DNA from: Gammaproteobacteria bacterium
Lineage (GTDB): Bacteria > Pseudomonadota > Gammaproteobacteria > JABABF01
Direction of reading: 5' to 3'
Length of the DNA stretch: 64,000 nucleotides
Assembly (NCBI GenBank): GCA_965237805.1
Contig: OZ250153.1
Coordinates: 1,588,382-1,652,381 of the forward strand
The translations under genes were made by a program, and so were the position numbers. Each line of letters begins with the position of its first letter. The first letter of the stretch is position 1. Positions 8,294 to 36,203 of this stretch are shown here, in pieces. The notes below the pieces were generated by a model that was not told the origin of the DNA, did no database searches, and was given only the letters and a program-made list of their open reading frames with translations.

Positions 8294-8639
8294 GCCACAG
8301 CTGATTTGGGGTGCCTGTGCGCACTGCCTCGCCGCCCCAGCGCTTGCCCCATAAATGGCCATCTGTTAGACTAGAGCAATGTATGCTTACGATGCGTAGT
8401 GTGGCCACGAGCGATGTTTCTCGCGTGCTCCGCTCTCTGCAACAGCCGAGTTGATCGCGATGCGAACGGCAGCTGCTTTGTCTTTTGTTGTGGCGCTCAG
8501 GTGGCGAGTGGGTCGCTGTGGCATAAATCAACAATTATTTGCGCATTGCATACATGACAGCTAGCAGGTTACGAGGCTCCCCTTTGGCTTTTGCAGCTGG
8601 GCGGGAGCCACGGCACAGATTGGTTTTGGAGAATGGACC

Positions 8640-11132
8640 ATGAGATTGAAGCAGTTTGCTAAGCCGAAGTGGGTGGGGGTCAGTTCGCATTCGCAACTGA
8701 GTGCGGCTTCCCCGCGACGCGCCCGCGTCGGTCTGAGTTTGTTGTGGCGCTGCTGTTCGTCACCAAAGCGAGTGTTTTTCAGCGGCCTGTTATTGCTGGC
8801 AGCGCTGTATTCCGCTGTGGTTGCGCCCATCGCCGATGCCGCGACGACCGCGTCCTATCAAGGCGTGGTGTTGCCCTATGCGGATACGCCGGACTTCGAG
8901 GGAGCGGACGGGCTCATTGGCCAGACTTCCAATGCCCAGTCCGTGACGCTGCCCAGCGGCACCGCTGCCAGCTACCAAGTGGCCGAGAACAGCAGCTTTT
9001 CGCTGACCATTGGCTTTCGCATGACAGCCATCTCCCCCGAACCCACGACGATGACTGGCGAGATCAGATCTCTGACTTTCGAGCTGGTCTATTCCTCCGA
9101 CAGCCGCTTCGTGTTTGAGGGCCATGAAATCCTTGACAGCGCTGCCGTCAATACTGGTGATAGCTGGGAGGACTACAGTGATCTCACTGTCTCTGAAGAG
9201 ACTGGTAACGGCGGTAGCACTAGCGGGATTACCATCTCGGCCGCGGTGACTGGCAGTGACGAGACCAGCATCCTCTGCGGTAAATTTTGCCTGTGGCCTG
9301 CTTTGGTGCGGCTCAACTTCTCCGTCGGTGCGCTCGACAGTGCGTCTGAGGAGCTGGATTTTGATTTACAGAGCCGCGTGCTATCTGTCGTCCACACCTA
9401 CGGCGACTCCCCCGAGATCAGCTATCTCAGCAGCACCGCTGCCTTGGTGGTCACGCGGCCGACCGTTCTGCGTCTGCGCGATCTGTCCGACCCCTTGCTG
9501 GTGTCTGCTGAGGAGTTTGTTCGCGTCGAGGCAGCACTGGACAGCGACGGGGATGCACTCTACGGCGCCCCCAGCATTGGCGACTTTACTGTCTCTTTGA
9601 CTGCGACATCGACCGTTTCACTTGCTCCCAGCACCGCCAGCGGCGACAGCTTCAGCTTGGAGGTGCTGACAGCGACTGACGGCGAGCAGGCTTTGTTGAC
9701 ATTCACCGACAACGATCGTGCTCTCAGCGCCACGGCGACGGTGACACTGGATGTGGTGGCGACGGCGCTGACGGTATCGGCGCCGTCGACGGTGACATCG
9801 GGCGTGATCTTTGCGCTGACGGTGACGGGGATGGACAGCAATAGCAATGAGGACACGGCCTACAGCCGGTCGGCGGCGACGACGGTGACGGCTTCGGCGG
9901 GGACGCTGGTGGTGGAGTCGAGCACGGCGAGCAGTATTGATCTGCGTTTGAGCGAGGTGACGGACGGCGATACGGTAACGCTGACGGTGACGGATGGCAG
10001 CGTGTCGGGCACGGCTGATGTGGCGGTGAATGTGGTGGCGACAGCGCTGACGGTGAGTGCTTCACCGGATCCGGTGGTGTCGGGTCAGTCCTTCACGCTG
10101 ACGGTGACGGGAGTCGATGCTGATGGCGCGACGGACACGGGCTACAGCCGGTCGGCGGCGACGACGGTGACGGCTTCGGTGGGGACGCTGGTGGAGGAGT
10201 CGAGTACAGCGACCAGTATTGATCTGCGTTTGAGCGAGGTGGCGGACGGCGCTGATGTGACGCTGACGGTGACGGATGGCAGCGTGTCGGGCACGGCAGC
10301 TGTGACGGTGAATGTGGTGGCGACAGCGCTGACGGTGAGTGCTTCACCGGATCCGGTGGTGTCGGGTCAGTCCTTCACGCTGACGGTGACGGGAGTCGAT
10401 GCCGATGGCGCGACGGACACGGGCTACAGCCGGTCGGCGGCGACGACGGTGACGGCTTCGGTGGGGACGCTGGTGGAGGAGTCGAGTACAGCGACCAGTA
10501 TTGATCTGCGTTTGAGCGAGGTGGCGGACGGCGCTGATGTGACGCTGACGGTGACGGATGGCAGCGTGTCGGGCACGGCAGCTGTGACGGTGAATGTGGT
10601 GGCGACAGCGCTGACGGTGAGTGCTTCACCGGATCCGGTGGTGTCGGGTCAGTCCTTCACGCTGACGGTGACGGGAGTCGATGCTGATGGCGCGACGGAC
10701 ACGGGCTACAGCCGGTCGGCGGCGACGACGGTGACGGCTTCGGTGGGGACGCTGGTGGAGGAGTCGAGTACAGCGACCAGTATTGATCTGCGTTTGAGCG
10801 AGGTGGCGGACGGCGCTGATGTGACGCTGACGGTGACGGATGGCAGCGTGTCGGGCACGGCAGCTGTGACGGTGAATGTGGTGGCGACAGCGCTGACGGT
10901 GAGTGCTTCACCGGATCCGGTGGTGTCGGGTCAGTCCTTCACGCTGACGGTGACGGGAGTCGATGCCGATGGCGCGACGGACACGGGCTACAGCCGGTCG
11001 GCGGCGACGACGGTGACGGCTTCGGTGGGGACGCTGGTGGAGGAGTCGAGCACGGCGACCAGTATTGATCTGCGTTTGAGCGAGGTGGCGGACGGCGCTG
11101 ATGTGACGCTGACGGATGGCAGTGAGCTGTGA
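8640..11132 (+). CDS. Giant repeat protein, N-terminal fragment: signal-like peptide, ~360-aa unique region, first ~5 Ig-like units
   Basis: RBS-like GGAGAA 7 nt upstream of ATG 8640. Hydrophobic segment FFSGLLLLAALYSAVVAPIADA followed by ATT. The unique region ends at ~9720 where the 282-bp units begin. Confidence 0.8.
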   Translation: MRLKQFAKPKWVGVSSHSQLSAASPRRARVGLSLLWRCCSSPKRVFFSGLLLLAALYSAVVAPIADAATTASYQGVVLPYADTPDFEGADGLIGQTSNAQSVTLPSGTAASYQVAENSSFSLTIGFRMTAISPEPTTMTGEIRSLTFELVYSSDSRFVFEGHEILDSAAVNTGDSWEDYSDLTVSEETGNGGSTSGITISAAVTGSDETSILCGKFCLWPALVRLNFSVGALDSASEELDFDLQSRVLSVVHTYGDSPEISYLSSTAALVVTRPTVLRLRDLSDPLLVSAEEFVRVEAALDSDGDALYGAPSIGDFTVSLTATSTVSLAPSTASGDSFSLEVLTATDGEQALLTFTDNDRALSATATVTLDVVATALTVSAPSTVTSGVIFALTVTGMDSNSNEDTAYSRSAATTVTASAGTLVVESSTASSIDLRLSEVTDGDTVTLTVTDGSVSGTADVAVNVVATALTVSASPDPVVSGQSFTLTVTGVDADGATDTGYSRSAATTVTASVGTLVEESSTATSIDLRLSEVADGADVTLTVTDGSVSGTAAVTVNVVATALTVSASPDPVVSGQSFTLTVTGVDADGATDTGYSRSAATTVTASVGTLVEESSTATSIDLRLSEVADGADVTLTVTDGSVSGTAAVTVNVVATALTVSASPDPVVSGQSFTLTVTGVDADGATDTGYSRSAATTVTASVGTLVEESSTATSIDLRLSEVADGADVTLTVTDGSVSGTAAVTVNVVATALTVSASPDPVVSGQSFTLTVTGVDADGATDTGYSRSAATTVTASVGTLVEESSTATSIDLRLSEVADGADVTLTDGSEL

Positions 11133-11623
11133 CGGTGAATGTGGTGGCGACAGCGCTGACGGTGAGTGCTTCACCGGATCCGGTGGTGTCGGGTCACGGA
11201 CGGTGACGGGAGTCGATGCCGATGGCGCGACGGACACGGGCTACAGCCGGTCGGCGTGGCTTCGGTGGGGACGCTGGTGGAGGAGTCGAGCACGGCGACC
11301 AGTATTGATCTGCGTTTGAGCGAGGTGGCGGACGGCGCTGATGTGACGCTGACGGTGACAGATGGCAGCGTGTCGGGCACGGCAGCTGTGACGGTGAATG
11401 TGGTGGCGACAGCGCTGACGGTGAGTGCTTCACCGGATCCGGTGGTGTCGGGTCAGTCCTTCACGCTGACGGTGACGGGAGTCGATGCCGATGGCGCGAC
11501 GGACACGGGCTACAGCCGGTCGGCGGCGACGACGGTGACGGCTTCGGTGGGGACGCTGGTGGAGGAGTCGAGTACAGCGACCAGTATTGATCTGCGTTTG
11601 AGCGAGGTGGCGGACGCGCTGAT

Positions 11624-14600
11624 GTGACGCTGACGGTGACGGATGGCAGCGTGTCGGGCACGGCAGCTGTGACGGTGAATGTGGTGGCGACAGCGCTGAC
11701 GGTGAGTGCTTCACCGGATCCGGTGGTGTCGGGTCAGTCCTTCACGCTGACGGTGACGGGAGTCGATGCTGATGGCGCGACGGACACGGGCTACAGCCGG
11801 TCGGCGGCGACGACGGTGACGGCTTCGGTGGGGACGCTGGTGGAGGAGTCGAGCACGGCGACCAGTATTGATCTGCGTTTGAGCGAGGTGGCGGACGGCG
11901 CTGATGTGACGCTGACGGTGACGGATGGCAGCGTGTCGGGCACGGCAGCTGTGACGGTGAATGTGGTGGCGACAGCGCTGACGGTGAGTGCTTCACCGGA
12001 TCCGGTGGTGTCGGGTCAGTCCTTCACGCTGACGGTGACGGGAGTCGATGCCGATGGCGCGACGGACACGGGCTACAGCCGGTCGGCGGCGACGACGGTG
12101 ACGGCTTCGGTGGGGACGCTGGTGGAGGAGTCGAGTACAGCGACCAGTATTGATCTGCGTTTGAGCGAGGTGGCGGACGGCGCTGATGTGACGCTGACGG
12201 TGACGGATGGCAGCGTGTCGGGCACGGCAGCTGTGACGGTGAATGTGGTGGCGACAGCGCTGACGGTGAGTGCTTCACCGGATCCGGTGGTGTCGGGTCA
12301 GTCCTTCACGCTGACGGTGACGGGAGTCGATGCTGATGGCGCGACGGACACGGGCTACAGCCGGTCGGCGGCGACGACGGTGACGGCTTCGGTGGGGACG
12401 CTGGTGGAGGAGTCGAGCACGGCGACCAGTATTGATCTGCGTTTGAGCGAGGTGGCGGACGGCGCTGATGTGACGCTGACGGTGACGGATGGCAGCGTGT
12501 CGGGCACGGCAGCTGTGACGGTGAATGTGGTGGCGACAGCGCTGACGGTGAGTGCTTCACCGGATCCGGTGGTGTCGGGTCAGTCCTTCACGCTGACGGT
12601 GACGGGAGTCGATGCCGATGGCGCGACGGACACGGGCTACAGCCGGTCGGCGGCGACGACGGTGACGGCTTCGGCGGGGACGCTGGTGGAGGAGTCGAGC
12701 ACGGCGACCAGTATTGATCTGCGTTTGAGCGAGGTGGCGGACGGCGCTGATGTGACGCTGACGGTGACGGATGGCAGCGTGTCGGGCACGGCAGCTGTGA
12801 CGGTGAATGTGGTGGCGACAGCGCTGACGGTGAGTGCTTCACCGGATCCGGTGGTGTCGGGTCAGTCCTTCACGCTGACGGTGACGGGAGTCGATGCCGA
12901 TGGCGCGACGGACACGGGCTACAGCCGGTCGGCGGCGACGACGGTGACGGCTTCGGTGGGGACGCTGGTGGAGGAGTCGAGCACGGCGACCAGTATTGAT
13001 CTGCGTTTGAGCGAGGTGGCGGACGGCGCTGATGTGACGCTGACGGTGACAGATGGCAGCGTGTCGGGCACGGCAGCTGTGACGGTGAATGTGGTGGCGA
13101 CGGCGCTGTCGCTGAGCGCCTCAGTGGAGCCGGTGTTATCTGATCGCAGCTTCCTGCTGACGGTTGCTGGGGTGGATGCGGATGGCGCGACGGACACGGG
13201 CTACAGCCTGTCGGCGATGGCCACGGTGACGGCGTCGGCGGGGACGCTGGTAGAGGATTCGCGCGCGGGGCAGGTCATTGGCCTGAGTTTGAGTGGCTTG
13301 GCCGCTGGCTCGACGGCACTGCTGACGGTGATCGACGATGGCTTGGAGGGTCAGCTCGAGCTGACAGTGGCGGCGGTGGCGGTGGTCTCCTTGGATGTGG
13401 CTGCACCTGAGACGGTGGTGTCTGGGGCGGCGTTCACGGTGACAGTGACGGCCCGCGATGCCAATGCTGTGGTGATTTCGGATGCGGATCTGTCGGCGGC
13501 GACGGCGGCCGTGTCGGTCGGGACGCTGTCGGCGTTCTCGCTGAGCGGGAACAACACACTGAGTATGGAGTTGCGAGCTGTGCCGGATGACACGACATCG
13601 ACGCTGACGGTGAGCTTGGGCTCAGTCAGCAGTACGGACACGGTGACGGTGGATGTGGTGGCGACGGTGCTGACGGTCTCGGCACCGGAGACGGTGGTCT
13701 CTAGTCAGACCTTCACGCTGACGGTGACGGGAGTCGATGCCGATAGCGCGACGGACACGGGCTACAGCCGGTCGGTGACGGCAATGGTGACGGCTTCGGC
13801 GGGGACGCTGGTGGAGGAGTCGAGTACAGCGACCAGTATTGATCTGCGTTTGAGCGAGGTGGCGGACGGCGCTGATGTGACGCTGACGGTGACAGATGGC
13901 AGCGTGTCTGGCACGGCAGCTGTGACGGTGAATGTGGTGGCGACAGCGCTGACGGTGAGTGCTTCACCGGATCCGGTGGTGTCGGGTCAGTCCTTCACGC
14001 TGACGGTGACGGGAGTCGATGCCGATGGCGCGACGGACACGGGCTACAGCCGGTCGGCGGCGACGACGGTGACGGCTTCGGCGGGGACGCTGGTGGAGGA
14101 GTCGAGCACGGCGACCAGTATTGATCTGCGTTTGAGCGAGGTGGCGGACGGCGCTGATGTGACGCTGACGGTGACAGATGGCAGCGTGTCGGGCACGGCA
14201 GCTGTGACGGTGAATGTGGTGGCGACAGCGCTGACGGTGAGTGCTTCACCGGATCCGGTGGTGTCGGGTCAGTCCTTCACGCTGACGGTGACGGGAGTCG
14301 ATGCCGATGGCGCGACGGACACGGGCTACAGCCGGTCGGCGGCGACGACGGTGACGGCTTCGGTGGGGACGCTGGTGGAGGAGTCGAGTACAGCGACCAG
14401 TATTGATCTGCGTTTGAGCGAGGTGGCGGACGGCGCTGATGTGACGCTGACGGTGACGGATGGCAGCGTGTCGGGCACGGCAGCTGTGACGGTGAATGTG
14501 GTGGCGACGGCGCTGGCGCTGAGCGCCTCAGTGGAGCCGGTGTTATCTGATCGCAGCTTCCTGCTGACGGTTGCTGGGGTCGATGCGGATGGCGCGACTG

Positions 14601-20600: not shown

Positions 20601-23600
20601 TGAGCAGGGCGACGGATGCTGAGACAGTGACGCTGACGGTGGCGGCCGGTGGCTTGTCGGGCACGGCAGCTGTGGTGGTAGATGTGGTGGCGACGGTGCT
20701 GACGGTCGCGGCACCGGAGACGGTGGTGGCGGGCGCGAGCTTTGCGCTGACGGTGATGGGAGTCGATGCCGATAGCGCGACGGACACGGACTACAGCCTG
20801 TCGTCGACGGCCACGGTGACGGCTGCGGCGGGGACGCTATTGCCCGTGACGCGCACGCCGACAGGCAACGGCTTCGGCGGTCTGAGTCTGAGCGTGGTGA
20901 GCGACGGCGATGTGGTGACGCTGACGGTGACGGATGGCGTGCTGTCGTCTGCAGGCACGGCTGATGTGGAGGTGGATGTGGTGGCGACGGAGCTGACGGT
21001 CGCGGCACCGGCGATGGTGGTGGCGGGCGCGAGCTTTGCGCTGACGGTGACGGGAGTCGATGCCGATAGCGCGACGGACACGGACTACAGCCTGTCGTCG
21101 ACGGCCACGGTGACGGCTTCGGCGGGGACGCTATTGCCCGTGACGCGCACGCCGACAGGCAACGGCTTCGTCGGTCTGAGTCTGAGCGTGGTGAGCGATG
21201 GCGATGTGGTGACGCTGACGGTGACGGATGGCGTGCTGTCGTCTGCAGACACGGCTGATGTGGAGGTGGATGTGGTGGCGACGGTGCTGGCGCTGAGCGC
21301 CTCAGTGGAGCCGGTGTTATCTGATCGCAGCTTCCTGCTGACGGTTGCTGGGGTGGATGCGGATGGCGCGACTGATACGGGCTACAGCCTGTCGGCGACG
21401 GCCACGGTGACGGCGTCGGCGGGGACGCTGGTAGAGGCTTCGCGCGCGGGGCAGGTCATTGGCCTGAGTTTGAGTGGCTTGGCCGCTGGCTCGACGGCAC
21501 TGCTGACGGTGATCGACGATGGCTTGGAGGGTCAGCTCGAGCTGACAGTGGCGGCGGTGGCGGTGGTCTCCTTGGATGTGGCTGCACCTGAGACGGTGGT
21601 GTCTGGGGCGGCGTTCACGGTGACAGTGACGGCCCGTGATGCCAATGCTGTGGTGATTTCGGATGCGGATCTGTCGGCGGCGACGGCGGCTGTGTCGGTC
21701 GGGACGCTGTCGGAGTTCTCGCTGAGCGGGAACAACACACTGAGTATGGAGTTGCGAGCTGTGCCGGACGACACGACATCGACGCTGACGGTGAGTTTGG
21801 GCTCAGTCAGCAGTGCGGACACGGTGACGGTGAATGTGGTGGCGACGGCGCTGTCGGTAGCGGCACCGGCGACGGTGGTGTCGGGTCAGCTCTTCATGCT
21901 GACGGTGACGGGAGTCGATGCGGATGACGCGACGGACACGGGCCACAGCCTGTCGACGGCGACGGTGTCGGCTGCGCCGGGGGCGATCGCGGATCTGAGT
22001 CAGAGGGGCAACGAGTTGAGTGTGAGTGTGAGCGGGGCGACGGATGCTGAGACAGTGACGCTGACGGTGGCGGCCGGTGGCTTGTCGGGCACGGCAGCTG
22101 TGGTGGTAGATGTGGTGGCGACGGTGCTGAGGCTGGAGCCCTCGCAGGATCCGGTCAATGGGGGCTCGCCCTTCACGCTGACGGTGACGGGAGTCGATGC
22201 GGATGACGCGACGGACACGGACTACAGCCTGTCGGCGACGGCCACGGTGACGGCTTCGGCGGGGACGCTGGTGGAGGATTCGCGGACGACGGCGGGCTTT
22301 GAGCTGAATTTGAGCGGGGTGGGCGATGGCACGCTAGTGACGCTGACGGTGACGGATGGCGCTTTGTCGAACACGCTGGATGTGACGGTGCAGGCGGCGG
22401 CGGCATCCTTGCTGGTGGCTGCACCGGCGACGGTGGTGTCTGGCGCTGACTTCACGGTGCAGTTGACGGCTTTGGACGCTGGGGACAACGTCATTCCAAA
22501 CCACAATCTATCGGCGGCGCAGGCCACCGCCTCGGTGGGGAATCTGATCTTGGTCTCGCAGACGACGGACACGCTGACTCTACAGTTGCGCGGTGTGTCG
22601 GATAGTGCATCGGCGGTTTTGACAGTGATGGAGGGGTCCGCCAGCGGCACTGACACGGTGGCGGTGGATGTGGTGGCGACGGCGCTGTCGGTCTCGGCAC
22701 CGGAGACGGTGGTGTCGGGCGCGAGCTTTGCGCTGACGGTGACGGGAGTCGATGCGGATGACGCGACGGACACGGGCTACAGCCTGTCGACGGCGACGGT
22801 GTCGGCTGCGCCGGGGGCGATCGCGGATCTGAGTCAGATGGGCAACGAGTTGAGTGTGAGTGTGAGCGGGGTGACGGACGGTGCGACAGCGACGCTGACG
22901 GTGGCGGCCGATGGCTTGTCGGGTACGGCAGCTGTGGCGGTGAATGTGGAGGCGACGGCGCTGACGGTCTCGGCACCAGAGACGGTGGTGTCGGGCACGT
23001 CCTTCACGCTGACGGTGACGGGAGTCAATTCAGCTGACGAGACGGACACGGACTACAGCCTGTCGAATGTGACGGTGACGGCCTCGACAGGGATGCTGAC
23101 GACGGTGCAGACCAGCACCGGCTTCGAGCTGAGACTGAGCGGGTTGGCGGACGGCACGATGGTGACGCTGACGGCGACGGATAGCGTGCTGTCGTCTGCA
23201 GACACGGCTGATGTGGTGGTGAATGTGGAGGCGACGGCGCTGACGGTCTCGGCACCGGAGACGGTGGTGTCGGGCACGTCCTTCACGCTGACGGTGACGG
23301 GAGTCAATTCAGCTGACGAGACGGACACGGACTACAGCCTGTCGAATGTGACGGTGACGGCCTCGACAGGGATGCTGACGACGGTGCAGACCAGCACCGG
23401 CTTCGAGCTGAGACTGAGCGGGTTGGCGGACGGCACGATGGTGACGCTGACGGCGACGGATAGCGTGCTGTCGTCTGCAGACACGGCTGCTGTGGCGGTG
23501 AATGTGGTGGCGACGGCGCTGACGGTATCGGCACCGGCGACGGTGGTGTCGGGTGCGAGCTTTGCGCTGACGGTGATGGGAGTCGATGCAGCTGGCGCGA

Positions 23601-26600
23601 CGGACACGGGCTACAGCCTGTCGAATGTGACGGTGACGGCCTCGTCGGGGACGATCTCGGGTCAAAGTCAGACCAGCACCGGCTTCGAGCTGAGTCTGAG
23701 CGGGGTGGCGGACGGCACGATGGTGACACTGACGGCGACGGATAGCGTGCTGTCGTCTGCAGACACGGTGGCTGTGGCGGTGAATGTGGTGGCGACGGCG
23801 CTGACGGTATCGGCACTGGCGACGGTGGTGTCGGGCGCGAGCTTTGCGCTGACGGTGACGGGAGTCGATGCAGCTGGCGCGACGGACACGGGCTACAGCC
23901 TGTCGAATGTGACGGTGACGGCCTCGACCGGGACGCTGACGACGGCGCAGACCAGCACTGGCTTCGAGCTGAGTCTGAGCGGGTTGGCTGACGGCACGAT
24001 GGTGACACTGACGGCGACGGATAGCGTGCTGTCGTCTGCAGACACGGCTGATGTGACGGTGGATGTGGTGGCGACGGCGCTGACGGTGTCGGCACCGGCG
24101 ACGGTGGTGTCGGGTGCGAGCTTTGCGCTGACAGTGACGGGAGTCGATGCAGCTGGCGCGACGGACACGGGCTACAGCCTGTCGAATGTGACGGTGACGG
24201 CCTCGTCGGGGACGATTTCGGGTCAAAGTCAGACCAGCACTGGCTTCGAGCTGAGTCTGAGCGGGGTGGCGGACGGCACGATGGTGACACTGACAGCGAC
24301 GGATAGCGTGCTGTCGTCTGCAGACACGGTGGCTGTGGCGGTGAATGTGGTGGCGACGGCGCTGACGGTATCGGCACTGGCGACGGTGGTGTCGGGCGCG
24401 AGCTTTGCGCTGACGGTGACGGGAGTCGATGCAGCTGGCGCGACGGACACGGGCTACAGCCTGTCGAATGTGACGGTGACGGCCTCGACCGGGACGCTGA
24501 CGACGGCGCAGACCAGCACTGGCTTCGAGCTGAGTCTGAGCGGGTTGGCTGACGGCACGATGGTGACACTGACGGCGACGGATAGTGTGCTGTCGTCTGC
24601 AGACACGGCTGATGTGACGGTGGATGTGGTGGCGACGGCGCTGACGGTGTCGGCACCGGCGACGGTGATGTCGGGTGCGAGCTTTGCGCTGACGGTGACG
24701 GGCGTCGATGCAGCTGGCGCGACGGACACGGGCTACAGCCTGTCGAATGTGACGGTGACGGCCTCGTCGGGGACGATTTCGGGTCAAAGTCAGACCAGCA
24801 CCGGCTTCGAGCTGAGACTGAGCGGGTTGGCGGACGGCACGATGGTGACACTGACGGCGACGGATAGCGTGCTGTCGTCTGCAGACACGGCTGATGTGAC
24901 GGTGGATGTGGTGGCGACGGCGCTGACGGTATCGGCACCGGCGACGGTGGTGTCGGGCGCGAGCTTTGCGCTGACGGTGACGGGCGTCGATGCAGCTGGC
25001 GCGACGGACACGGGCTACAGCCTGTCGAATGTGACGGTGACGGCCTCGTCGGGGACGATCTCGGGTCAAAGTCAGACCAGCACCGGCTTCGAGCTGAGTC
25101 TGAGCGGGGTGGCGGACGGCACGATGGTGACACTGACGGCGACGGATAGCGTGCTGTCGTCTGCAGACACGGTGGATGTGGCGGTGAATGTGGTGGCGAC
25201 GGCGCTGACGGTCTCGGCACCGGCGACGGTGGTGTCGGGTGCGAGCTTTGCGCTGACGGTGACGGGAGTCGATGCAGCTGGCGCGACTGACACGGGCTAC
25301 AGCCTGTCGAATGTGACGGTGACGGCCTCGACCGGGATGCTGACGACGGCGCAGACCAGCACTGGCTTCGAGCTGAGTCTGAGCGGGTTGGCTGACGGCA
25401 CGATGGTGACACTGACGGCGACGGATAGTGTGCTGTCGTCTGCAGACACGGCAGCTGTGACGGTGGATGTGGTGGCGACGGCGCTGACGGTATCGGCACC
25501 GGCGACGGTGGTGTCGGGTGCGAGCTTTGCGCTGACGGTGACGGGCGTCGATGCAGCTGGCGCGACGGACACGGGCTACAGCCTGTCGAATGTGACGGTG
25601 ACGGCCTCGTCGGGGACGATTTCGGGTCAAAGTCAGACCAGCACCGGCTTCGAGCTGAGTCTGAGCGGGGTGACTGATGGCACGATGGTGACACTGACGG
25701 CGACGGATAGCGTGCTGTCGGCTGCAGACACGGTGGATGTGGCGGTGAATGTGGTGGCGACGGCGCTGACGGTATCGGCACCGGCGACGGTGGTGTCGGG
25801 CGCGAGCTTTGCGCTGACGGTGACGGGCGTCGATGCAGCTGGCGCGACGGACACGGGCTACAGCCTGTCGAATGTGACGGTGACGGCCTCGACCGGGACG
25901 CTGACGACGGCGCAGACCAGCACTGGCTTCGAGCTGAGTCTGAGCGGGTTGGCTGACGGCACGATGGTGACACTGACGGCGACGGATAGTGTGCTGTCGT
26001 CTGCAGACACGGCTGATGTGACGGTGGATGTGGTGGCGACGGCGCTGACGGTCTCGGCACCGGCGACGGTGGTGTCGGGTGCGAGCTTTGCGCTGACAGT
26101 GACGGGAGTCGATGCAGCTGGCGCGACGGACACGGGCTACAGCCTGTCGAATGTGACGGTGACGGCCTCGTCGGGGACGATTTCGGGTCAAAGTCAGACC
26201 AGCACCGGCTTCGAGCTGAGTCTGAGCGGGTTGGCGGACGGCACGATGGTGACACTGACGGCGACGGATAGCGTGCTGTCGTCTGCAGACACGGCTGATG
26301 TGACGGTGGATGTGGTGGCGACGGCGCTGACGGTGTCGGCACCGGCGACGGTGGTGTCGGGTGCGAGCTTTGCGCTGACAGTGACGGGAGTCGATGCAGC
26401 TGGCGCGACGGACACGGGCTACAGCCTGTCGAATGTGACGGTGACGGCCTCGTCGGGGACGATTTCGGGTCAAAGTCAGACCAGCACCGGCTTCGAGCTG
26501 AGTCTGAGCGGGTTGGCGGACGGCACGATGGTGACACTGACGGCGACGGATAGCGTGCTGTCGTCTGCAGACACGGCTGATGTGACGGTGGATGTGGTGG

Positions 26601-29600
26601 CGACGGCGCTGACGGTGTCGGCACCGGCGACGGTGGTGTCGGGTGCGAGCTTTGCGCTGACAGTGACGGGCGTCGATGCAGCTGGCGCGACGGACACGGG
26701 CTACAGCCTGTCGAATGTGACGGTGACGGCCTCGTCGGGGACGATCTCGGGTCAAAGTCAGACCAGCACCGGCTTCGAGCTGAGTCTGAGCGGGGTGACG
26801 GACGGCACGATGGTGACGCTGACGGCGACGGATAGTGTGCTGTCGTCCGCAGACACGGCTGATGTGGTGGTGAATGTGGAGGCGACGGCGCTGACGGTCT
26901 CGGCACCGGCGACGGTGGTGTCGGGCACGTCCTTCACGCTGACGGTGACGGGAGTCAATTCAGCTGACGAGACGGACACGGACTACAGCCTGTCGAATGT
27001 GACGGTGACGGCCTCGACCGGGATGCTGACGACGGCGCAGACCAGCACCGGCTTCGAGCTGAGACTGAGCGGGTTGGCGGACGGCACGATGGTGACGCTG
27101 ACGGCGACGGATAGCGTGCTGTCGTCTGCAGACACGGCAGCTGTGACGGTGGATGTGGTGGCGACAGCGCTGACGGTCTCGGCACCGGCGACGGTGACGT
27201 CGGGCGTGATCTTTGCGCTGACGGTGACGGGCGTCGATGCAGCTGGCGAGACGGACACGGACTACAGCCTGTCGAATGTGACGGTGACGGCCTCGACAGG
27301 GATGCTGACGACGGCGCAGACAAGCACCGGCTTCGAGCTGAGACTGAGCGGGTTGGCGGACGGCACGATGGTGACGCTGACGGCGACGGATAGCGTGCTG
27401 GTGTCTACAGACATGGTGGATGTGACGGTGCAGGCGGCGGCGGCATCCTTGCTGGTGGATGCACCGGCGACGGTGGTGTCTGGCGCTGACTTCACGGTGC
27501 AGTTGACGGCTTTGGACGCTGGGGACAACGTCATTCCAAGCCATGATCTATCAGCGGCGACGGCCACCGTCTCGGTGGGGACTCTGAGCTTGGTCTCGCG
27601 GACGGCGGACACGCTGACTCTACAGTTGCGCGGTGTGTCAGATAGTGAATCGGCGATTTTGACAGTGATGGAGGGTGACGCCATCGGCACTGACACGGTG
27701 ACGGTGAATGTGGTCGCCACGGCGCTGTCACTGGTGAGCAATGTGGCAGAGATAACGGCAGGGGCGCAGACAGGCGTCACCGTCACTGGCATCGACGCTG
27801 ATGGCGCGATGGACACGGGCTACAGCCTGTCATTGGCACCCCAGATCACGGCCTCGATGGGCGTGACGGTCACTGGTATTACGGTATTCCCCACCGGTAG
27901 TGGTAGCCACCTCGTGCAATTCACCCTGTCGGGTGCGCCAGATGGCAGCGAATTGTTGCTGACGATGACGGCTACCCCTCAGAATGGTGGGCTGGTCGGC
28001 AGTACATCCGTGACTTTGAATGTGGTGGCGACGGCGCTGAGGCTATCGGCACCGGCGACGGTGGTGTCGGGCACGACAGCCACGCTGACGGTGACGGGAG
28101 TCGATGCAGCTGGCGCGACGGACACGGGCTACAGCCTGTCGAATGTGACGGTGACGGCCTCGACCGGGACGCTGACGACGGCGCAGACAAGCACTGGCTT
28201 CGAGCTGCGTCTGAGCGGCTTGGCGGATGGCACGATGGTGACGCTGACGGCGACGGATAGTGTGCTGCTGTCTGCAGACACGGTGGCTGTGACGGTGGAT
28301 GTGGTGGCGACGGCGCTGACGGTATCGGCACCGGCGACGGTGGTGTCGGGCCAGCTCTTCACGCTGACGGTGACGGGAGTCGATGCCGATGGCGCGACGG
28401 ACACGGACTACAGCCTGTCGACGGCCACGGTGACGGCTTCGGCGGGGGCGCTGGTGGAAGAGTCGAGCACGGCGAGCAGTATTGATCTGCGTTTGAGCGA
28501 GGTGTCCGACGGCGCTGATGTGACGCTGACGGTGACGGATGGCAGCGTGTCGGGCACGGCTGAGGTGGCGGTGGATGTGGTGGCGACGGCGCTGTCGCTG
28601 AGTGCCTCAGTGGATCCGGTAGTTTCCGGCCAGCTCTTCACGCTGACGGTGACGGGAGTCGATGCCGATGGCGCGACGGACACGGGCCACAGCCTGTCGT
28701 CGACGGCAACGGTGACGGTTTCGGCGGGGACGATCGCGGATTTCAGTCAGACGGGCAACGAGTTGAGCTTGAGTCTGAGCGGTGTGACGGACGGTGCGAC
28801 AGCGACGCTGACGGTGGCGGCCGATGGCTTGTCGGGCACGGTGGCTGTGACGGTAGATGTGGTGGCGACGGCGCTGAGGCTGAGCGCCTCAGTGGAGCCG
28901 GTGTTATCTGATCGCAGCTTCCTGCTGACGGTTGCTGGGGTCGATGCGGATGACGCGACGGACACGGGCTACAGCCTGTCGGCGTCGGCCACGGTGACGG
29001 CGTCGGCGGGGACGCTGGTAGAGGCTTCGCGCGCGGGGCAGGTCATTGGCCTGAGTTTGAGTGGCTTGGCCGCTGGCTCGACGGCAACGGTGACGGTGAT
29101 CGACGATGGCTTGGAGGGTGAGCTCGAGCTGACAGTGGCGGCGGTGGCGGTGGTCTCCTTGGATGTGGCTGCACCTGAGACGGTGGTGTCTGGGGCGGCG
29201 TTCACGGTGACAGTGACGGCCCGCGATGCCAATGCTGTGGTGATTTCGGATGCGGATCTGTCGGCGGTGACGGCGGCTGTGTCGGTCGGGACGCTGTCGG
29301 CGTTCTCGCTGAGCGGGAACAACACACTGAGTATGGAGTTGCGAGCTGTGCCGGACGACACGACATCGACGCTGACGGTGAGTTTGGGCTCAGTCAGCAG
29401 TGCGGACACGGTGACGGTGGATGTGGTGGCGACAGCGCTGACGGTAGCGGCACCGGCGACAGTGGTGTCGGGCCAGTCCTTCACGCTGACGGTGACGGGA
29501 GTCGATGCGGATGGCGCGACGGACACGGGCTACAGCCTGTCGACGGCCACGGTGACGGCTTCGGCGGGGACGCTGGTGGAGGAGTCGAGCACGGCGACCA

Positions 29601-30046
29601 GTATTGATCTGCGTTTGAGCGGGGTGTCCGACGGCGCTGTGGTGACGGTGACGGTGACGGCCGATGGCTTGTCGGGCACGGCTGATGTGGCGGTGGATGT
29701 GGTGGCGACGGCGCTGTCGGTCTCGGCACCGGCGACGGTGGTGTCGGGCGCGAGCTTTGCGCTGACGGTGACGGGAGTCGATGCGAATGACGCGACGGAC
29801 ACGGGCTACAGCCTGTCGACGGCGGCGGTGTCGGCTTCGCCGGGGACGATCGCGGATCTGAGTCAGACGGGCAACGAGTTGAGTGTGAGTGTGAGCGGGG
29901 TGACGGACGGTGCGACAGCGACGCTGACGGTGGCGGCCGATGGCTTGTCGGGCACGGCAGTTGTGGCGGTGGATGTGGTGGCGACGGCGCTGTCGGTGAG
30001 CGCCTGCACCGGAGCCGGTGGTGTCGGGTCAGTCTCTTCACGCTGA
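11624..30046 (+). CDS. Giant repeat protein, main fragment (6140 aa, ~65 Ig-like units of at least 8 subtypes)
   Basis: 18.4-kb uninterrupted frame. It consists entirely of 93-97-aa units such as VVATALTVSASPDPVVSGQSFTLTVTGVDADGATDTGYSRSAATTVTASVGTLVEESSTATSIDLRLSEVADGADVTLTVTDGSVSGTAAVTVN. Confidence 0.85.
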   Translation: MTLTVTDGSVSGTAAVTVNVVATALTVSASPDPVVSGQSFTLTVTGVDADGATDTGYSRSAATTVTASVGTLVEESSTATSIDLRLSEVADGADVTLTVTDGSVSGTAAVTVNVVATALTVSASPDPVVSGQSFTLTVTGVDADGATDTGYSRSAATTVTASVGTLVEESSTATSIDLRLSEVADGADVTLTVTDGSVSGTAAVTVNVVATALTVSASPDPVVSGQSFTLTVTGVDADGATDTGYSRSAATTVTASVGTLVEESSTATSIDLRLSEVADGADVTLTVTDGSVSGTAAVTVNVVATALTVSASPDPVVSGQSFTLTVTGVDADGATDTGYSRSAATTVTASAGTLVEESSTATSIDLRLSEVADGADVTLTVTDGSVSGTAAVTVNVVATALTVSASPDPVVSGQSFTLTVTGVDADGATDTGYSRSAATTVTASVGTLVEESSTATSIDLRLSEVADGADVTLTVTDGSVSGTAAVTVNVVATALSLSASVEPVLSDRSFLLTVAGVDADGATDTGYSLSAMATVTASAGTLVEDSRAGQVIGLSLSGLAAGSTALLTVIDDGLEGQLELTVAAVAVVSLDVAAPETVVSGAAFTVTVTARDANAVVISDADLSAATAAVSVGTLSAFSLSGNNTLSMELRAVPDDTTSTLTVSLGSVSSTDTVTVDVVATVLTVSAPETVVSSQTFTLTVTGVDADSATDTGYSRSVTAMVTASAGTLVEESSTATSIDLRLSEVADGADVTLTVTDGSVSGTAAVTVNVVATALTVSASPDPVVSGQSFTLTVTGVDADGATDTGYSRSAATTVTASAGTLVEESSTATSIDLRLSEVADGADVTLTVTDGSVSGTAAVTVNVVATALTVSASPDPVVSGQSFTLTVTGVDADGATDTGYSRSAATTVTASVGTLVEESSTATSIDLRLSEVADGADVTLTVTDGSVSGTAAVTVNVVATALALSASVEPVLSDRSFLLTVAGVDADGATDTAYSLSATAMVTASAGTLVEDSRAGQVIGLSLSGLAAGSTVLLTVIDDGLEGELELTVAAVAVVSLDVAAPETVVSGAAFTVTVTARDANAVVISDADLSAATAAVSVGTLSAFSLSGNNTLSMELRAVPDDTTSTLTVSLGSVSSTDTVTVDVVATVLTVSAPETVVSSQTFTLTVTGVDADSATDTGYSRSVTAMVTASAGTLVEESSTATSIDLRLSEVADGADVTLTVTDGSVSGTAAVTVNVVATALTVSASPDPVVSGQSFTLTVTGVDADGATDTGYSRSAATTVTASAGTLVEESSTATSIDLRLSEVADGADVTLTVTDGSVSGTAAVTVNVVATALTVSASPDPVVSGQSFTLTVTGVDADGATDTGYSRSAATTVTASVGTLVEESSTATSIDLRLSEVADGADVTLTVTDGSVSGTAAVTVNVVATALSLSASVEPVLSDRSFLLTVAGVDADGATDTGYSLSAMATVTASAGTLVEDSRAGQVIGLSLSGLAAGSTALLTVIDDGLEGQLELTVAAVAVVSLDVAAPETVVSGAAFTVTVTARDANAVVISDADLSAATAAVSVGTLSAFSLSGNNTLSMELRAVPDDTTSTLTVSLGSVSSTDTVTVDVVATVLTVSAPETVVSSQTFTLTVTGVDADSATDTGYSRSVTAMVTASAGTLVEESSTATSIDLRLSEVADGADVTLTVTDGSVSGTAAVTVNVVATALTVSASPDPVVSGQSFTLTVTGVDADGATDTGYSRSAATTVTASVGTLVEESSTATSIDLRLSEVADGADVTLTVTDGSVSGTAAVTVNVVATALTVSASPDPVVSGQSFTLTVTGVDADGATDTGYSRSAATTVTASVGTLVEESSTATSIDLRLSEVADGADVTLTVTDGSVSGTAAVTVNVVATALTVSASPDPVVSGQSFTLTVTGVDADGATDTGYSRSAATTVTASVGTLVEESSTATSIDLRLSEVADGADVTLTVTDGSVSGTAAVTVNVVATVLTVSAPETVVSSQTFTLTVTGVDADGATDTGYSRSAATTVTASVGTLVEESSTATSIDLRLSEVADGADVTLTVTDGSVSGTAAVTVNVVATALTVSASPDPVVSGQSFTLTVTGVDADGATDTGYSRSAATTVTASVGTLVEESSTATSIDLRLSEVADGADVTLTVTDGSVSGTAAVTVNVVATALTVSASPDPVVLGQSFTLTVTGVDADGATDTGYSRSAATTVTASVGTLVEESSTATSIDLRLSEVADGADVTLTVTDGSVSGTAAVTVNVVATALALSASVEPVLSDRSFLLTVAGVDADGATDTAYSLSATAMVTASAGTLVEDSRAGQVIGLSLSGLAAGSTALLTVIDDGLEGQLELTVAAVAVVSLDVAAPETVVSGVAFTVTVTARDANAVVISDADLSAATATVSVGTLSEFSLSGNNTLSMELRAVPDDTTAMLTVSLGSVSSADTVTVNVVATVLTVSAPETVVSSQTFTLTVTGVDADSATDTGYSRSVTAMVTASAGTLVEESSTATSIDLRLSEVADGADVTLTVTDGSVSGTAAVTVNVVATALTVSASPDPVVSGQSFTLTVTGVDADGATDTGYSRSAATTVTASAGTLVEESSTATSIDLRLSEVADGADVTLTVTDGSVSGTAAVTVNVVATALTVSASPDPVVSGQSFTVTVMGVDADGAEDTDYSLSAGATVVASAGTLEEDSRTTDVFTLRLNEVADGTMVTLTVTDGSVSGTADVAVNVVATALALSASVEPVLSDRSFLLTVAGVDADGATDTDYSLSATATVTASAGTLVEDSRAGQVIGLSLSGLAAGSTALLTVIDDGLEGQLELTVAAVAVVSLDVAAPETVVSGAAFTVTVTARDANAVVISDADLSAATAAVSVGTLSAFSLSGNNTLSMELRAVPDDTTSTLTVSLGSVSSTDTVTVDVVATALSVAAPATVVSGQLFTLTVTGVDEDDATDTGHSLSTATVSAAPGEIADLSQTGNELSVSVSRATDAETVTLTVAAGGLSGTAAVVVDVVATVLTVAAPETVVAGASFALTVMGVDADSATDTDYSLSSTATVTAAAGTLLPVTRTPTGNGFGGLSLSVVSDGDVVTLTVTDGVLSSAGTADVEVDVVATELTVAAPAMVVAGASFALTVTGVDADSATDTDYSLSSTATVTASAGTLLPVTRTPTGNGFVGLSLSVVSDGDVVTLTVTDGVLSSADTADVEVDVVATVLALSASVEPVLSDRSFLLTVAGVDADGATDTGYSLSATATVTASAGTLVEASRAGQVIGLSLSGLAAGSTALLTVIDDGLEGQLELTVAAVAVVSLDVAAPETVVSGAAFTVTVTARDANAVVISDADLSAATAAVSVGTLSEFSLSGNNTLSMELRAVPDDTTSTLTVSLGSVSSADTVTVNVVATALSVAAPATVVSGQLFMLTVTGVDADDATDTGHSLSTATVSAAPGAIADLSQRGNELSVSVSGATDAETVTLTVAAGGLSGTAAVVVDVVATVLRLEPSQDPVNGGSPFTLTVTGVDADDATDTDYSLSATATVTASAGTLVEDSRTTAGFELNLSGVGDGTLVTLTVTDGALSNTLDVTVQAAAASLLVAAPATVVSGADFTVQLTALDAGDNVIPNHNLSAAQATASVGNLILVSQTTDTLTLQLRGVSDSASAVLTVMEGSASGTDTVAVDVVATALSVSAPETVVSGASFALTVTGVDADDATDTGYSLSTATVSAAPGAIADLSQMGNELSVSVSGVTDGATATLTVAADGLSGTAAVAVNVEATALTVSAPETVVSGTSFTLTVTGVNSADETDTDYSLSNVTVTASTGMLTTVQTSTGFELRLSGLADGTMVTLTATDSVLSSADTADVVVNVEATALTVSAPETVVSGTSFTLTVTGVNSADETDTDYSLSNVTVTASTGMLTTVQTSTGFELRLSGLADGTMVTLTATDSVLSSADTAAVAVNVVATALTVSAPATVVSGASFALTVMGVDAAGATDTGYSLSNVTVTASSGTISGQSQTSTGFELSLSGVADGTMVTLTATDSVLSSADTVAVAVNVVATALTVSALATVVSGASFALTVTGVDAAGATDTGYSLSNVTVTASTGTLTTAQTSTGFELSLSGLADGTMVTLTATDSVLSSADTADVTVDVVATALTVSAPATVVSGASFALTVTGVDAAGATDTGYSLSNVTVTASSGTISGQSQTSTGFELSLSGVADGTMVTLTATDSVLSSADTVAVAVNVVATALTVSALATVVSGASFALTVTGVDAAGATDTGYSLSNVTVTASTGTLTTAQTSTGFELSLSGLADGTMVTLTATDSVLSSADTADVTVDVVATALTVSAPATVMSGASFALTVTGVDAAGATDTGYSLSNVTVTASSGTISGQSQTSTGFELRLSGLADGTMVTLTATDSVLSSADTADVTVDVVATALTVSAPATVVSGASFALTVTGVDAAGATDTGYSLSNVTVTASSGTISGQSQTSTGFELSLSGVADGTMVTLTATDSVLSSADTVDVAVNVVATALTVSAPATVVSGASFALTVTGVDAAGATDTGYSLSNVTVTASTGMLTTAQTSTGFELSLSGLADGTMVTLTATDSVLSSADTAAVTVDVVATALTVSAPATVVSGASFALTVTGVDAAGATDTGYSLSNVTVTASSGTISGQSQTSTGFELSLSGVTDGTMVTLTATDSVLSAADTVDVAVNVVATALTVSAPATVVSGASFALTVTGVDAAGATDTGYSLSNVTVTASTGTLTTAQTSTGFELSLSGLADGTMVTLTATDSVLSSADTADVTVDVVATALTVSAPATVVSGASFALTVTGVDAAGATDTGYSLSNVTVTASSGTISGQSQTSTGFELSLSGLADGTMVTLTATDSVLSSADTADVTVDVVATALTVSAPATVVSGASFALTVTGVDAAGATDTGYSLSNVTVTASSGTISGQSQTSTGFELSLSGLADGTMVTLTATDSVLSSADTADVTVDVVATALTVSAPATVVSGASFALTVTGVDAAGATDTGYSLSNVTVTASSGTISGQSQTSTGFELSLSGVTDGTMVTLTATDSVLSSADTADVVVNVEATALTVSAPATVVSGTSFTLTVTGVNSADETDTDYSLSNVTVTASTGMLTTAQTSTGFELRLSGLADGTMVTLTATDSVLSSADTAAVTVDVVATALTVSAPATVTSGVIFALTVTGVDAAGETDTDYSLSNVTVTASTGMLTTAQTSTGFELRLSGLADGTMVTLTATDSVLVSTDMVDVTVQAAAASLLVDAPATVVSGADFTVQLTALDAGDNVIPSHDLSAATATVSVGTLSLVSRTADTLTLQLRGVSDSESAILTVMEGDAIGTDTVTVNVVATALSLVSNVAEITAGAQTGVTVTGIDADGAMDTGYSLSLAPQITASMGVTVTGITVFPTGSGSHLVQFTLSGAPDGSELLLTMTATPQNGGLVGSTSVTLNVVATALRLSAPATVVSGTTATLTVTGVDAAGATDTGYSLSNVTVTASTGTLTTAQTSTGFELRLSGLADGTMVTLTATDSVLLSADTVAVTVDVVATALTVSAPATVVSGQLFTLTVTGVDADGATDTDYSLSTATVTASAGALVEESSTASSIDLRLSEVSDGADVTLTVTDGSVSGTAEVAVDVVATALSLSASVDPVVSGQLFTLTVTGVDADGATDTGHSLSSTATVTVSAGTIADFSQTGNELSLSLSGVTDGATATLTVAADGLSGTVAVTVDVVATALRLSASVEPVLSDRSFLLTVAGVDADDATDTGYSLSASATVTASAGTLVEASRAGQVIGLSLSGLAAGSTATVTVIDDGLEGELELTVAAVAVVSLDVAAPETVVSGAAFTVTVTARDANAVVISDADLSAVTAAVSVGTLSAFSLSGNNTLSMELRAVPDDTTSTLTVSLGSVSSADTVTVDVVATALTVAAPATVVSGQSFTLTVTGVDADGATDTGYSLSTATVTASAGTLVEESSTATSIDLRLSGVSDGAVVTVTVTADGLSGTADVAVDVVATALSVSAPATVVSGASFALTVTGVDANDATDTGYSLSTAAVSASPGTIADLSQTGNELSVSVSGVTDGATATLTVAADGLSGTAVVAVDVVATALSVSACTGAGGVGSVSSR
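13088..17308 (+). repeat. Higher-order repeat: three copies of a 1407-bp (5-domain, B-C-D-A-A) super-unit
   Basis: Boundaries at 13088, 14495, 15902 and 17309 are exactly 1407 bp apart. Copies 1 and 3 give identical antisense ORF translations (13351..13641 = 16165..16455). Confidence 0.9.
22943..27430 (+). repeat. Block of 16 consecutive units of the YSLSNVTVTAS subfamily, partly organised as a 561-bp (2-domain) super-unit
   Basis: Unit starts at 23501, 24062 and 24623 (561-bp spacing). Antisense ORF ladder at 23332/23893/24454 and 23668/24229/24790. Confidence 0.9.
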
Positions 30047-30048
30047 CG

Positions 30049-30952
30049 GTGACGGGAGTCGATGCGGATGACGCGACGGACACGGGCTACAGCCTGTCGA
30101 CGGCGGCAACGGTGACGGCTTCGGCGGGGACGATCGCGGATCAGAGTCAGACGGGCGACGAGTTGAGCTTGAGTCTGAGCGGGGTGACGGACGGCGCTGT
30201 GGCGACGCTGACGGTGGCGGCCGATGGCTTGTCGGGCACGGTTGATGTGACGGTAGATGTGGTGGCGACGGCACTGAGGCTGGTGGCCTCGCAGGATCCG
30301 GTCAATAGGGACACATCCTTCACGCTGACGGTGACGGCAGTCGATGCAGCTGGCGCGACGGACACGGGCTACAGCCTGTCGGCGTCGGCCACGGTGACGG
30401 CTTCGGCGGGGACGCTGGTGGAGGATTCGCGCGCGGCGACCAGTATTGAGCTGCGTTTGAGCGGGGTGTCCGACGGCGATGTGGTGACGCTGACGCTGAC
30501 GGATGGCGTGCTGTCGAGCACGCTGGCTGTGACGGTAACTGCGCGCAATCAGCTCGATATCGATCTCGACGGACGATGTCGACCAAACGGATGCCTTGAT
30601 GATGTTCCGCACGCTGGGCTTTACGGTGTCCTTCCGCACCTTGATCAAGGACGGCACCTTGTCGGGTTTCGTGGTGGCTGGCAGCCCGGCCCTGCTCGAC
30701 GAAGAGCTCAATATCATCGAGCGTATTGAGGCTCTTGAGGCCAGCTCCAACAGTGTCTTGGACATTGATCTCGACGGCGATGTCGACCAAACGGATGCCT
30801 TGATGATGTTCCGCACACTGGGCTTTACGGCGTCCTTCCGCACCTTGATCAAGGACGGCACCTTTTCTGGTGTCGTGGTGGCTGGCATTCCGGCCCTGAT
30901 CGACGAAGAGCTCAATATCATCGTGCGCATCGAGCAGCGCGCCGGCCTCTGA
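30049..30952 (+). CDS. Giant repeat protein, C-terminal fragment: last 2 Ig-like units plus two 68-aa dockerin/EF-hand-like modules (1-nt indel near 30572 splits it into ORFs 30049..30729 and 30596..30952)
   Basis: Continues the repeat consensus (LTVTGVDADDATDTGYSLS...). LDIDLDGDVDQTDALMMFRTLGF occurs twice. The first copy reads gacggAcgatgtc against gacggcgatgtc in the second copy. Confidence 0.65.
30553..30949 (+). repeat. Two tandem ~204-bp (68-aa) C-terminal modules, each starting with an EF-hand/dockerin-like loop
   Basis: LDIDLDGDVDQTDALMMFRTLGFT(V/A)SFRTLIKDGT... starts at 30553 and 30758. Confidence 0.85.
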
Positions 30953-30993
30953 GCTAGCGCCGCGCCGTAGCCTCCTCGCGAGCTGGTGGGCGC

Positions 30994-36057: not shown

Positions 36058-36203
36058 CGGCTAAAATCCTGTTGTTGCTATCGCTTGTCGATGCCCGAGC
36101 ATCATGCCACGGGCGATTGCGCTCTATAATAACCGTGTGGTCATCGCGATGCCGTGTGCTGGTACCGTTGCTCGCCACCCCCAGCATGAGGTACACACAA
36201 TCC

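Follow-up and report, generated by a model that had tools for sequence, protein, structure and literature searches.

A giant gene for a predicted secreted Ig-repeat protein with a dockerin-like tail in an uncultured gammaproteobacterium

Is a 22 kb gene made of tandem immunoglobulin (Ig)-like repeats a real gene, and by what route would its product leave a Gram-negative cell? These questions are raised by a 64,000-nucleotide stretch of gammaproteobacterial contig OZ250153.1 (GenBank assembly GCA_965237805.1, positions 1,588,382 to 1,652,381 of the forward strand; hereafter the window), which holds a giant gene of ~22 kb at 8640-30952 (+). Bacterial attachment, whether to particles, to hosts or to other bacteria, depends largely on giant repeat adhesins, and the well-understood proteobacterial examples are exported by type I or type V secretion. 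In our assessment the gene is probably real and lineage-restricted, and would encode a giant secreted Ig-repeat protein, docked through its tail and exported by a route unlinked to the locus. The family brings together a predicted Sec signal, an orphan head domain, modelled Ig units that no curated model recognises and a dockerin-like tail, and it has so far been seen only in a little-sampled gammaproteobacterial lineage.

With its reading-frame breaks repaired the gene has a length of ~7,440 codons, and the stitched protein comprises 7,411 aa, with a mass of 722 kDa, an isoelectric point (pI) of 4.05 and a composition in which T, V, A and S together make up 60%. Its parts, from the ribosome-binding region to the stop codon, are as follows.

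8628-8631 (+): GGAG Shine-Dalgarno-like motif, 8 nt before the ATG at 8640, read from the sequence
8640-8837 (+): start codon and predicted signal peptide, aa 1-66, with a long n-region, the h-region VFFSGLLLLAALYSAVVAPI and the cleavage motif ADA/ATT
8838-9467 (+): head domain of ~210 aa, residues 67-276, with an invariant LCGxxCxWP motif
9468-9752 (+): degenerate leading unit (unit 0), 31% identical to the commonest unit and alignable with the others over its full length; AlphaFold2 predicted local distance difference test (pLDDT) 57-84
9753-30540 (+): Ig-like unit array, 74 tandem units of 279-312 bp
30541-30757 (+): linker and C-terminal repeat 1 (~68 aa), consisting of LDIDLDGDVDQTDALMMFRTL (F-hand Ca2+ loop and helix) and then the GFVVAGSPALLDEELNIIERIE segment
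30758-30952 (+): C-terminal repeat 2 (~64 aa, same motifs) and the TGA stop at 30950-30952

An upstream scan of 8200-8900 found no sigma-70-like promoter or terminator. Tandem Repeats Finder reported one array at 9751-30536 (period 282, 74.0 copies, 78% matches). Cutting the translation at the recurrent VVATAL boundary gave units of 92-104 aa that are rich in T (17%), V (15%), A (15%), S (13%) and D (8%), and the degenerate unit 0 brings the total to 75. Single-linkage clustering of 46 distinct full-length units yielded 8 subtypes at 70% identity and 12 at 80%; at the latter level the units follow the order A B8 CD B3 CD B3 CD B7 CD BB E CD F GG CD F H I F J16 I K J B L CD B F, and their higher-order arrangement includes a super-repeat of 1407 bp. 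GC skew across the array is +0.25 to +0.30. The antisense open reading frames (ORFs) of 1,148-1,200 aa inside it (e.g. 23304-26906, -) are by-products of a stop-poor, G-rich repeat, not genes.

An AlphaFold2 model of the unit, built on a 30-row paralogue alignment, is a seven-stranded sandwich with a pLDDT of 93-98. Its top Foldseek matches are the Ig-like domains of SbsC, InvD/InvE, LigA, Rib and titin, with probabilities of up to 1.00 and template modelling (TM) scores of 0.5-0.6 on single-domain targets, and the best PDB sequence match of a 30-unit profile is to the Ig domains of the invasin-like FdeC (E=0.0054). No Pfam or NCBIfam family reached its cut-off with seven unit pairs and three segments of ~1,350-1,500 aa; the only matches of the units, all sub-threshold, were to BatD, MG4 and Ig_GEX2_N, and a remote unit relative, P0013, matches Big_3_5 and Big_1. 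The modelling supports the reading of the units as Ig-like beta-sandwiches outside current curated models, and they are distantly related to the Big_1/invasin group. Among the top structural matches, the S-layer and Ig-array proteins (SbsC, Sap, LigA and Rib) resemble the unit in fold only, at 9-18% identity, and are anchored otherwise, by S-layer homology (SLH) domains, LPxTG or a lipobox. A first-pass annotation, made from the sequence alone, had described a continuous T/V/S/A/D-rich tandem array with units of this size in at least 8 subtypes, as Tandem Repeats Finder, translation and clustering bear out. It had also taken the units for Ig-like folds and proposed profile and structure prediction as a check; the unit was modelled as a beta-sandwich of that fold, and the pLDDT, Foldseek and FdeC results agree.

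Family relatives were reached only by an exhaustive HMMER search with the unit profile, which found 301 proteins at E<=1e-3 and 13 at E<=1e-30 among 1.84 billion representative proteins. The seven relatives that were looked up all come from a single ENA assembly, ERZ25766962, where they sit on contigs of 2-3x coverage. On one of these contigs (L081), P0002, of 3,088 aa, carries the head domain and P0007, of 1,457 aa, the tail; their ends overlap, and together they make up one gene of ~4,530 aa and ~45 units. This gene lies between trmJ and a block ending in rmlD and xseA, the same position as that of the window gene (window versus L081 identity 81% for TrmJ, 68% for RmlD and 60% for XseA), and is directly followed by a 361-aa mini-paralogue. 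Two further members, P0001 (1,208 aa) and P0018 (401 aa), stand side by side between the dcw cluster and rsmI-lpoA, in the same organism or bin, and P0004 is another with the head domain. The relatives thus constitute a small multigene family in which a predicted signal peptide, Ig units and the dockerin-like tail are constant, all three being kept by P0018 and other small members; the head domain is limited to large members and is missing from P0001, P0003, P0009 and P0018. Two oddities of these contigs look like artefacts of low-coverage long-read assembly: a lone Ig unit fused behind a split lysS fragment (L081, 18331-18870), and a related array that appears as a 19-kb 'circular' contig carrying repeat ORFs only (L085, ctg16026_2x_c).

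No relatives were found in the GTDB species representatives by a genome scan with one ORF (ORF A), nor in JGI metagenomes by scans with the tail and head alignments. The host is an uncultured marine-type gammaproteobacterium. Its SecF is at most 60-62% identical to those of Halieaceae, SAR86 and other gammaproteobacterial metagenome-assembled genomes (GTDB scan), which leaves it without a close GTDB representative and also upholds the Gram-negative envelope assumed at first. An exact look-up of the window XseA gave no record, so the source genome is absent from the collection queried. In a tblastn comparison of gammaproteobacterial secDF loci, suhB and a match to the antisense ORF at 7736-8362 (the trmJ locus) lay beside secDF, and neither the giant gene nor the S8 protease of the window was found.

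The last 136 residues of the giant protein form two 68-aa repeats, each starting LDIDLDGDVDQTDALMMFRTL. Pfam Dockerin_1 (PF00404) scores 28.3 and 27.5 bits on this tail against a cut-off of 22.9, and it matches the tails of five of five family members at E<=0.1. A profile of the five tails, across which 38 columns are invariant, has PDB matches at E<0.5 that are all dockerins (1ohz_B, E=0.0031; 2ccl_B; 4uyq; 4fl4), with two serine-protease chains at E ~0.5. Each F-hand is followed by a conserved segment of ~45 aa, VAGFPAL...EAAIV, so that the Pfam alignment stretches Dockerin_1 positions 3-56 across residues 6-93 of the tail and the two 22-residue F-hand segments do not sit in one compact module of ~60-70 aa. 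Pfam gave no match to the tail besides Dockerin_1, and a word-indexed protein search with the C-terminal 136 aa returned nothing. From its motifs we read the tail as a tandem dockerin-like, F-hand module that is predicted to bind Ca2+. The statement that the gene has no recognisable anchoring machinery therefore no longer holds, as Dockerin_1 passes its curated cut-off on the last 136 residues and the tandem F-hand module is conserved in relatives. The absence of LPXTG, PEP-CTERM and GlyGly-CTERM tails, which had also been asserted, was confirmed by a regular-expression scan of the stitched protein, in which LPxTG does not occur and no GG motif is followed by a hydrophobic tail; the only PEP is at residue 133, the C-terminus (...IVRIEQRAGL) has no hydrophobic tail, and no type IX secretion C-terminal domain is among the Pfam matches of the tail.

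At its other end the giant protein looks like a Sec substrate. The N-terminus reads ...KRVFFSGLLLLAALYSAVVAPIADA/ATTASYQ, with a positive n-region that is unusually long (44 aa), a hydrophobic core of ~20 residues and an A-x-A site; it fits the n-, h- and c-region rules, in line with the Sec-type hydrophobic segment ending in ADA/ATT that had been noticed earlier. Signal-peptide-like segments also start P0002, P0004, P0001, P0003, P0009 and P0018. We considered and dropped an extended signal peptide region (ESPR), since Pfam gave no match and neither P0004 nor P0002 conserves the extension. The head domain that follows has no Pfam, NCBIfam or PDB match, and its only homologues are in P0004 (47% identity) and P0002 (28%), both of which share LCGxxCxWP. 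Word-indexed protein searches with the N-terminal 371 aa and with a three-sequence N-domain alignment found nothing. The AlphaFold2 model of the head domain is beta-rich with a pLDDT of only ~30-55, too low for a fold claim, and a Foldseek search with this low-confidence model gave no match at E<=0.001, Fab fragments ranking on top. A cohesin-like head domain was unsupported: Pfam gave no match, and an hhalign comparison with a CipA cohesin sequence returned a probability of 0.06%.

From these parts a five-step route can be proposed. Sec would move the unfolded chain across the inner membrane, as the signal peptide, present in relatives too, suggests. We infer that the protein would then exit by an unlinked general route, most plausibly the type II secretion system (T2SS), the default for Sec-dependent folded exoproteins. 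As in other giant adhesins, the Ig units, whose fold comes from modelling, would build a long acidic stalk; the C-terminal module, whose motif is observed, would bind Ca2+ and attach, at the cell surface or within a matrix, to a partner that is cohesin-like or of another kind; and the head domain would be the distal binding end.

The neighbourhood of the gene bears on the second of these steps. A Pfam scan of the 64-kb window found no component of a type I secretion system (T1SS), a type V secretion system (T5SS) or an usher pathway among 30 neighbouring ORFs, and there are no ATP-binding cassette (ABC), membrane fusion protein (MFP) or TolC genes in the window or in the flanks of five related loci. 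The related loci likewise sit among housekeeping genes, and no secretion genes flank any family member examined. Sec and T2SS are general pathways that are normally unlinked to their substrates; because of this, and because the relatives lie among housekeeping genes, missing secretion genes in 64 kb say little. The first-pass annotation was right that RTX (repeats-in-toxin) motifs and T1SS, T5SS and usher genes are absent, as the motif and Pfam scans agree. Its puzzle of an unexplained export narrows to the outer-membrane step, and is weaker than stated in so far as it leaned on the absence of genes from 64 kb.

The first question, whether the gene is intact, turns on its reading frame. Rather than the single ORF of ~7,400 codons that had been annotated at 8640-30952, the assembly gives five pieces, the longest of 6,140 aa.

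8640-11132 (+): ORF piece 1, frame 0, 830 aa
11166-11627 (+): ORF piece 2, frame 0, 153 aa
11624-30046 (+): ORF piece 3, frame 2, 6,140 aa
30049-30729 (+): ORF piece 4, frame 1, 226 aa
30596-30952 (+): ORF piece 5, frame 2, 118 aa

Five indel sites produce four frame changes in the order 0/0/2/1/2. The lesions were placed by aligning the damaged stretches to sister units.

11104-11260 (+): deletion cluster, seven deletions of 6, 2, 11, 8, 2, 10 and 3 nt (net -42), spanning two adjacent, otherwise near-identical units
11600-11604 (+): 1-nt deletion at ~11602, GGACGGCGC becoming GGAC-GCGC, frame 0 to 2
30004-30035 (+): two 1-nt insertions at ~30006 and ~30033, frame 2 to 0 to 1, from alignment to unit 28577 and three-frame translation
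30572-30578 (+): 1-nt insertion at ~30573, GACGG[A]CGATGTC, in the first Ca2+-loop codons, frame 1 to 2, from a DNA alignment of C-terminal repeat 1 to repeat 2

A stop map places in-frame stops created by the deletion cluster at 11130, 11136, 11157 and 11163, and a frame-2 stop follows the insertions at ~30006 and ~30033 at position 30044. Programmed frameshifting or phase variation was rejected as a cause, since the five sites are unrelated, have no simple-repeat or slippery context, and one of them consists of seven separate deletions.

Purifying selection acted on the giant gene until very recently, because the ratio of nonsynonymous to synonymous differences (pN/pS) is 0.18 among units at least 97% identical, and because frame 2 is open over 6,151 consecutive codons where frame 0 has 677 stops (8500-31200). 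A number of observations weigh against an intact gene for a tail-docked, exported protein. Among divergent subtypes pN/pS is ~1, a value that the ungapped comparison may inflate; the three 3' insertions (~30006, ~30033 and ~30573) lie in comparatively unique sequence outside homopolymers and fit real mutations equally well; and both indels and copy number are read from the assembly alone. The tail is not a canonical dockerin, with F-hands 68 aa apart rather than ~33, and its AlphaFold2 model, which places an additional hairpin and helix between the F-hands at low confidence, is poor (pLDDT 36-70). Pfam scans of the window found no cohesin, and the head domain shows no similarity to the CipA cohesin. 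Finally, every step of the route after Sec is inferred.

As to the frame breaks themselves, long-read consensus errors in a near-identical repeat are somewhat the more probable cause, true inactivating mutations somewhat the less. The longest exact internal repeat is 927 bp, and the assembly must therefore be long-read based. That the gene is a recently inactivated pseudogene, with all five indel sites real and the full-length protein not made in this organism, is unlikely in our judgement, and is the alternative that survives best. It would account for the in-frame stops and the four frame changes, for the position of the three 3' insertions in a less repetitive part of the gene, and for two non-repeat window genes that also look indel-damaged, aldehyde dehydrogenase at its 3' end and rmlD at its 5' end, which could reflect general gene decay. 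Against it, the array is otherwise clean, as the long open stretch of frame 2 attests, and recent differences between units are mostly synonymous. The largest lesion, the deletion cluster, falls within a run of near-identical B units, exactly where assemblers and polishers fail. The same fragmentation is seen in the relatives assembled at 2-3x coverage, which are chopped by frameshifts (with out-of-frame 'GGDG...RRC' stretches in P0004 and P0005), and on L081 even the essential gene lysS is split. Most other genes of the window are full length against their Pfam models, an observation that also cuts the other way, in favour of real mutations; conversely, the damage in aldehyde dehydrogenase and rmlD and the spurious circular contig of a relative speak for assembly errors too.

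A further alternative is that the size of the gene is partly an assembly artefact, identical units having been inflated in number or mis-ordered by the assembler, chiefly in the B and J runs. Thirteen units are identical as protein, there are many exact DNA repeats of 280-927 bp, a related array of the ENA sample came out of assembly as a spurious circle of 19 kb, and the deletion cluster suggests a poorly supported join. We nevertheless hold this to be decidedly unlikely: the 46 distinct full-length unit sequences occur in an ordered higher-order pattern, the 'identical' units are told apart by synonymous differences, a related genome has ~45 units at the same locus, and the flanks are unique on both sides.

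The giant gene might belong to an undescribed Sec-dependent display of giant fibres, in which the expanded 'split dockerin' tail plugs into a receptor, a cellulosome-like docking on a Gram-negative surface that dispenses with T1SS and T5SS; we give this idea little credence at present. This receptor might be the family's own orphan CxxC head domain, allowing head-to-tail polymers or networks, and the lineage-specific 1,004-aa S8 subtilase of the window, which has a weak C-terminal F-hand motif, might be recruited to the same scaffold.

An inverse autotransporter of the intimin/invasin type (type Ve), with the N-terminal domain as an outer-membrane barrel that would export and anchor an Ig passenger, is very improbable. 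Intimin and invasin do have their parts in a like order, with a signal peptide, a beta-rich N-terminal domain and then Ig repeats; FdeC, InvD and InvE are among the unit's best matches in sequence and fold, and the N-domain model consists mostly of beta strands. However, the three N-domain homologues have no Pfam match to the barrel (IAT_beta) or to LysM at E<=10, a PDB profile search found no intimin or invasin barrel, the domain is only ~210 aa long with an invariant CxxC motif that is unusual for outer-membrane barrels, and the confidence of the model is too low for any fold claim. Moreover, P0001, P0003, P0009 and P0018 lack the head domain yet keep the signal peptide, units and tail. With the inverse autotransporters FdeC, InvD and InvE the giant protein shares a predicted Sec-type signal, a long chain of ~95-aa Ig-like domains and its best unit matches; unlike them it has no detectable barrel or LysM, units below the Big_1 threshold, a dockerin-like C-terminus in place of a lectin-like tip, and 75 units, far more than in characterised members.

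Secretion as an RTX/Bap-like adhesin through a T1SS encoded elsewhere in the genome, the usual route of giant acidic gammaproteobacterial Ig-repeat adhesins such as LapA, SiiE and MpIBP, is scarcely credible because a predicted N-terminal signal peptide is present and GGxGxD nonapeptides are absent from the stitched protein, to which are added the lack of any retention-module or T1SS-related NCBIfam or Pfam match and of linked transporter genes near any of the five family loci. What the protein has in common with these adhesins (BapA included) is a giant acidic tandem Ig-like stalk, a gammaproteobacterial host, Ca2+-binding elements and a presumed role in adhesion or biofilm, and it differs in its predicted signal peptide and in having no RTX repeats, retention module or linked T1SS. 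By analogy it would work like other giant Ig-repeat adhesins, yet it carries the marks of neither type I nor type V secretion.

The closest parallels to the tail are the type I dockerins of cellulosomes (PF00404; 1OHZ chain B), with which it shares a duplicated F-hand motif, DxDxDGxVDxxDAxxxxR, followed by a helix, and a Pfam score above the cut-off; it differs from them in the 68-aa spacing of its F-hands, in the ~45-aa conserved segment after each, and in a Gram-negative host with no cellulosome genes. Dockerin-like motifs without a cellulosome have been described in the marine gammaproteobacterium Saccharophagus degradans (PMC2386152). Giant 'dockerin-type' proteins of the Omnitrophota have beta structure inserted between dockerin helices, and an attachment role has been proposed for them (bioRxiv 10.1101/2023.11.21.568195). 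These proteins, likened here by description and from another phylum, are also giant, repetitive and extracellular, and the beta structure between their dockerin-like helices is a further point of likeness; unlike the present family, they carry many dockerin and TSP3 repeats throughout and are preceded by a conserved T2SS-like locus, none of which flanks the loci described here. If the tail does dock to a partner, cohesin-dockerin-style assembly would extend to Gram-negative surface fibres, and the 136-aa tail would be a small handle for experiments. Protein catalogues hold genes of this kind only as fragments, because long-read metagenome assemblies break them systematically.

The upstream neighbour of the giant gene is trmJ (SpoU methylase, 7484-8293, +). 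The 208-aa ORF antisense to it (7736-8362, -) is probably spurious despite its tblastn matches in relatives. Downstream, in 30953-31845, rmlD begins ~40 nt past the stop of the giant gene and has neither an in-frame start codon nor the first Rossmann strand, its 5' end reading AVASSRAGGRLG in the window versus VLLTGADGRLG in L081. A block of ~8.6 kb that lies between the giant gene and rmlD in L081 (mini-paralogue, prfB, lysS, rmlA/B and rmlC) is missing from the window. Between secF and suhB lies the gene for the S8 subtilase (1,004 aa, 3481-6495, -), which may be functionally linked to the giant protein. Its C-terminus bears the F-hand-like motif LDVNGDGNQDRDDLLLVLAQL, with a Dockerin_1 match below the cut-off (E=0.013, 16.2 bits); homology of this tail to that of the giant protein was rejected, the similarity being limited to a 25-residue F-hand (hhalign E=0.014, probability 3%).

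Within 42733-47324, the aldehyde dehydrogenase gene changes frame near 43,897. Its 3' end of ~285 bp (43850-44134) is imperfectly repeated at 47061-47324, and the two copies flank ~2.9 kb of 44%-GC DNA with no convincing ORF; the region is an inserted island with target duplication, or else it was mis-assembled. The 23S and 5S rRNA genes (48469-51626) have no 16S gene or tRNA gene upstream, so that the rRNA operon appears unlinked, and no tRNA genes were found across the 64 kb. A full-length gene for a Tle1-like phospholipase effector of the type VI secretion system lies at 55087-56055 (-), and a second, fragmentary Tle1-like copy at ~53004-53230 (-) adjoins a cytochrome P450 gene (53401-54729). 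An IS1-family transposase fragment occupies the edge of the window (63182-63850, -). At 36051-36686 there is an F420H2-dependent quinone reductase-like gene (PF04075), of a family commoner in Actinobacteria than in gammaproteobacteria.

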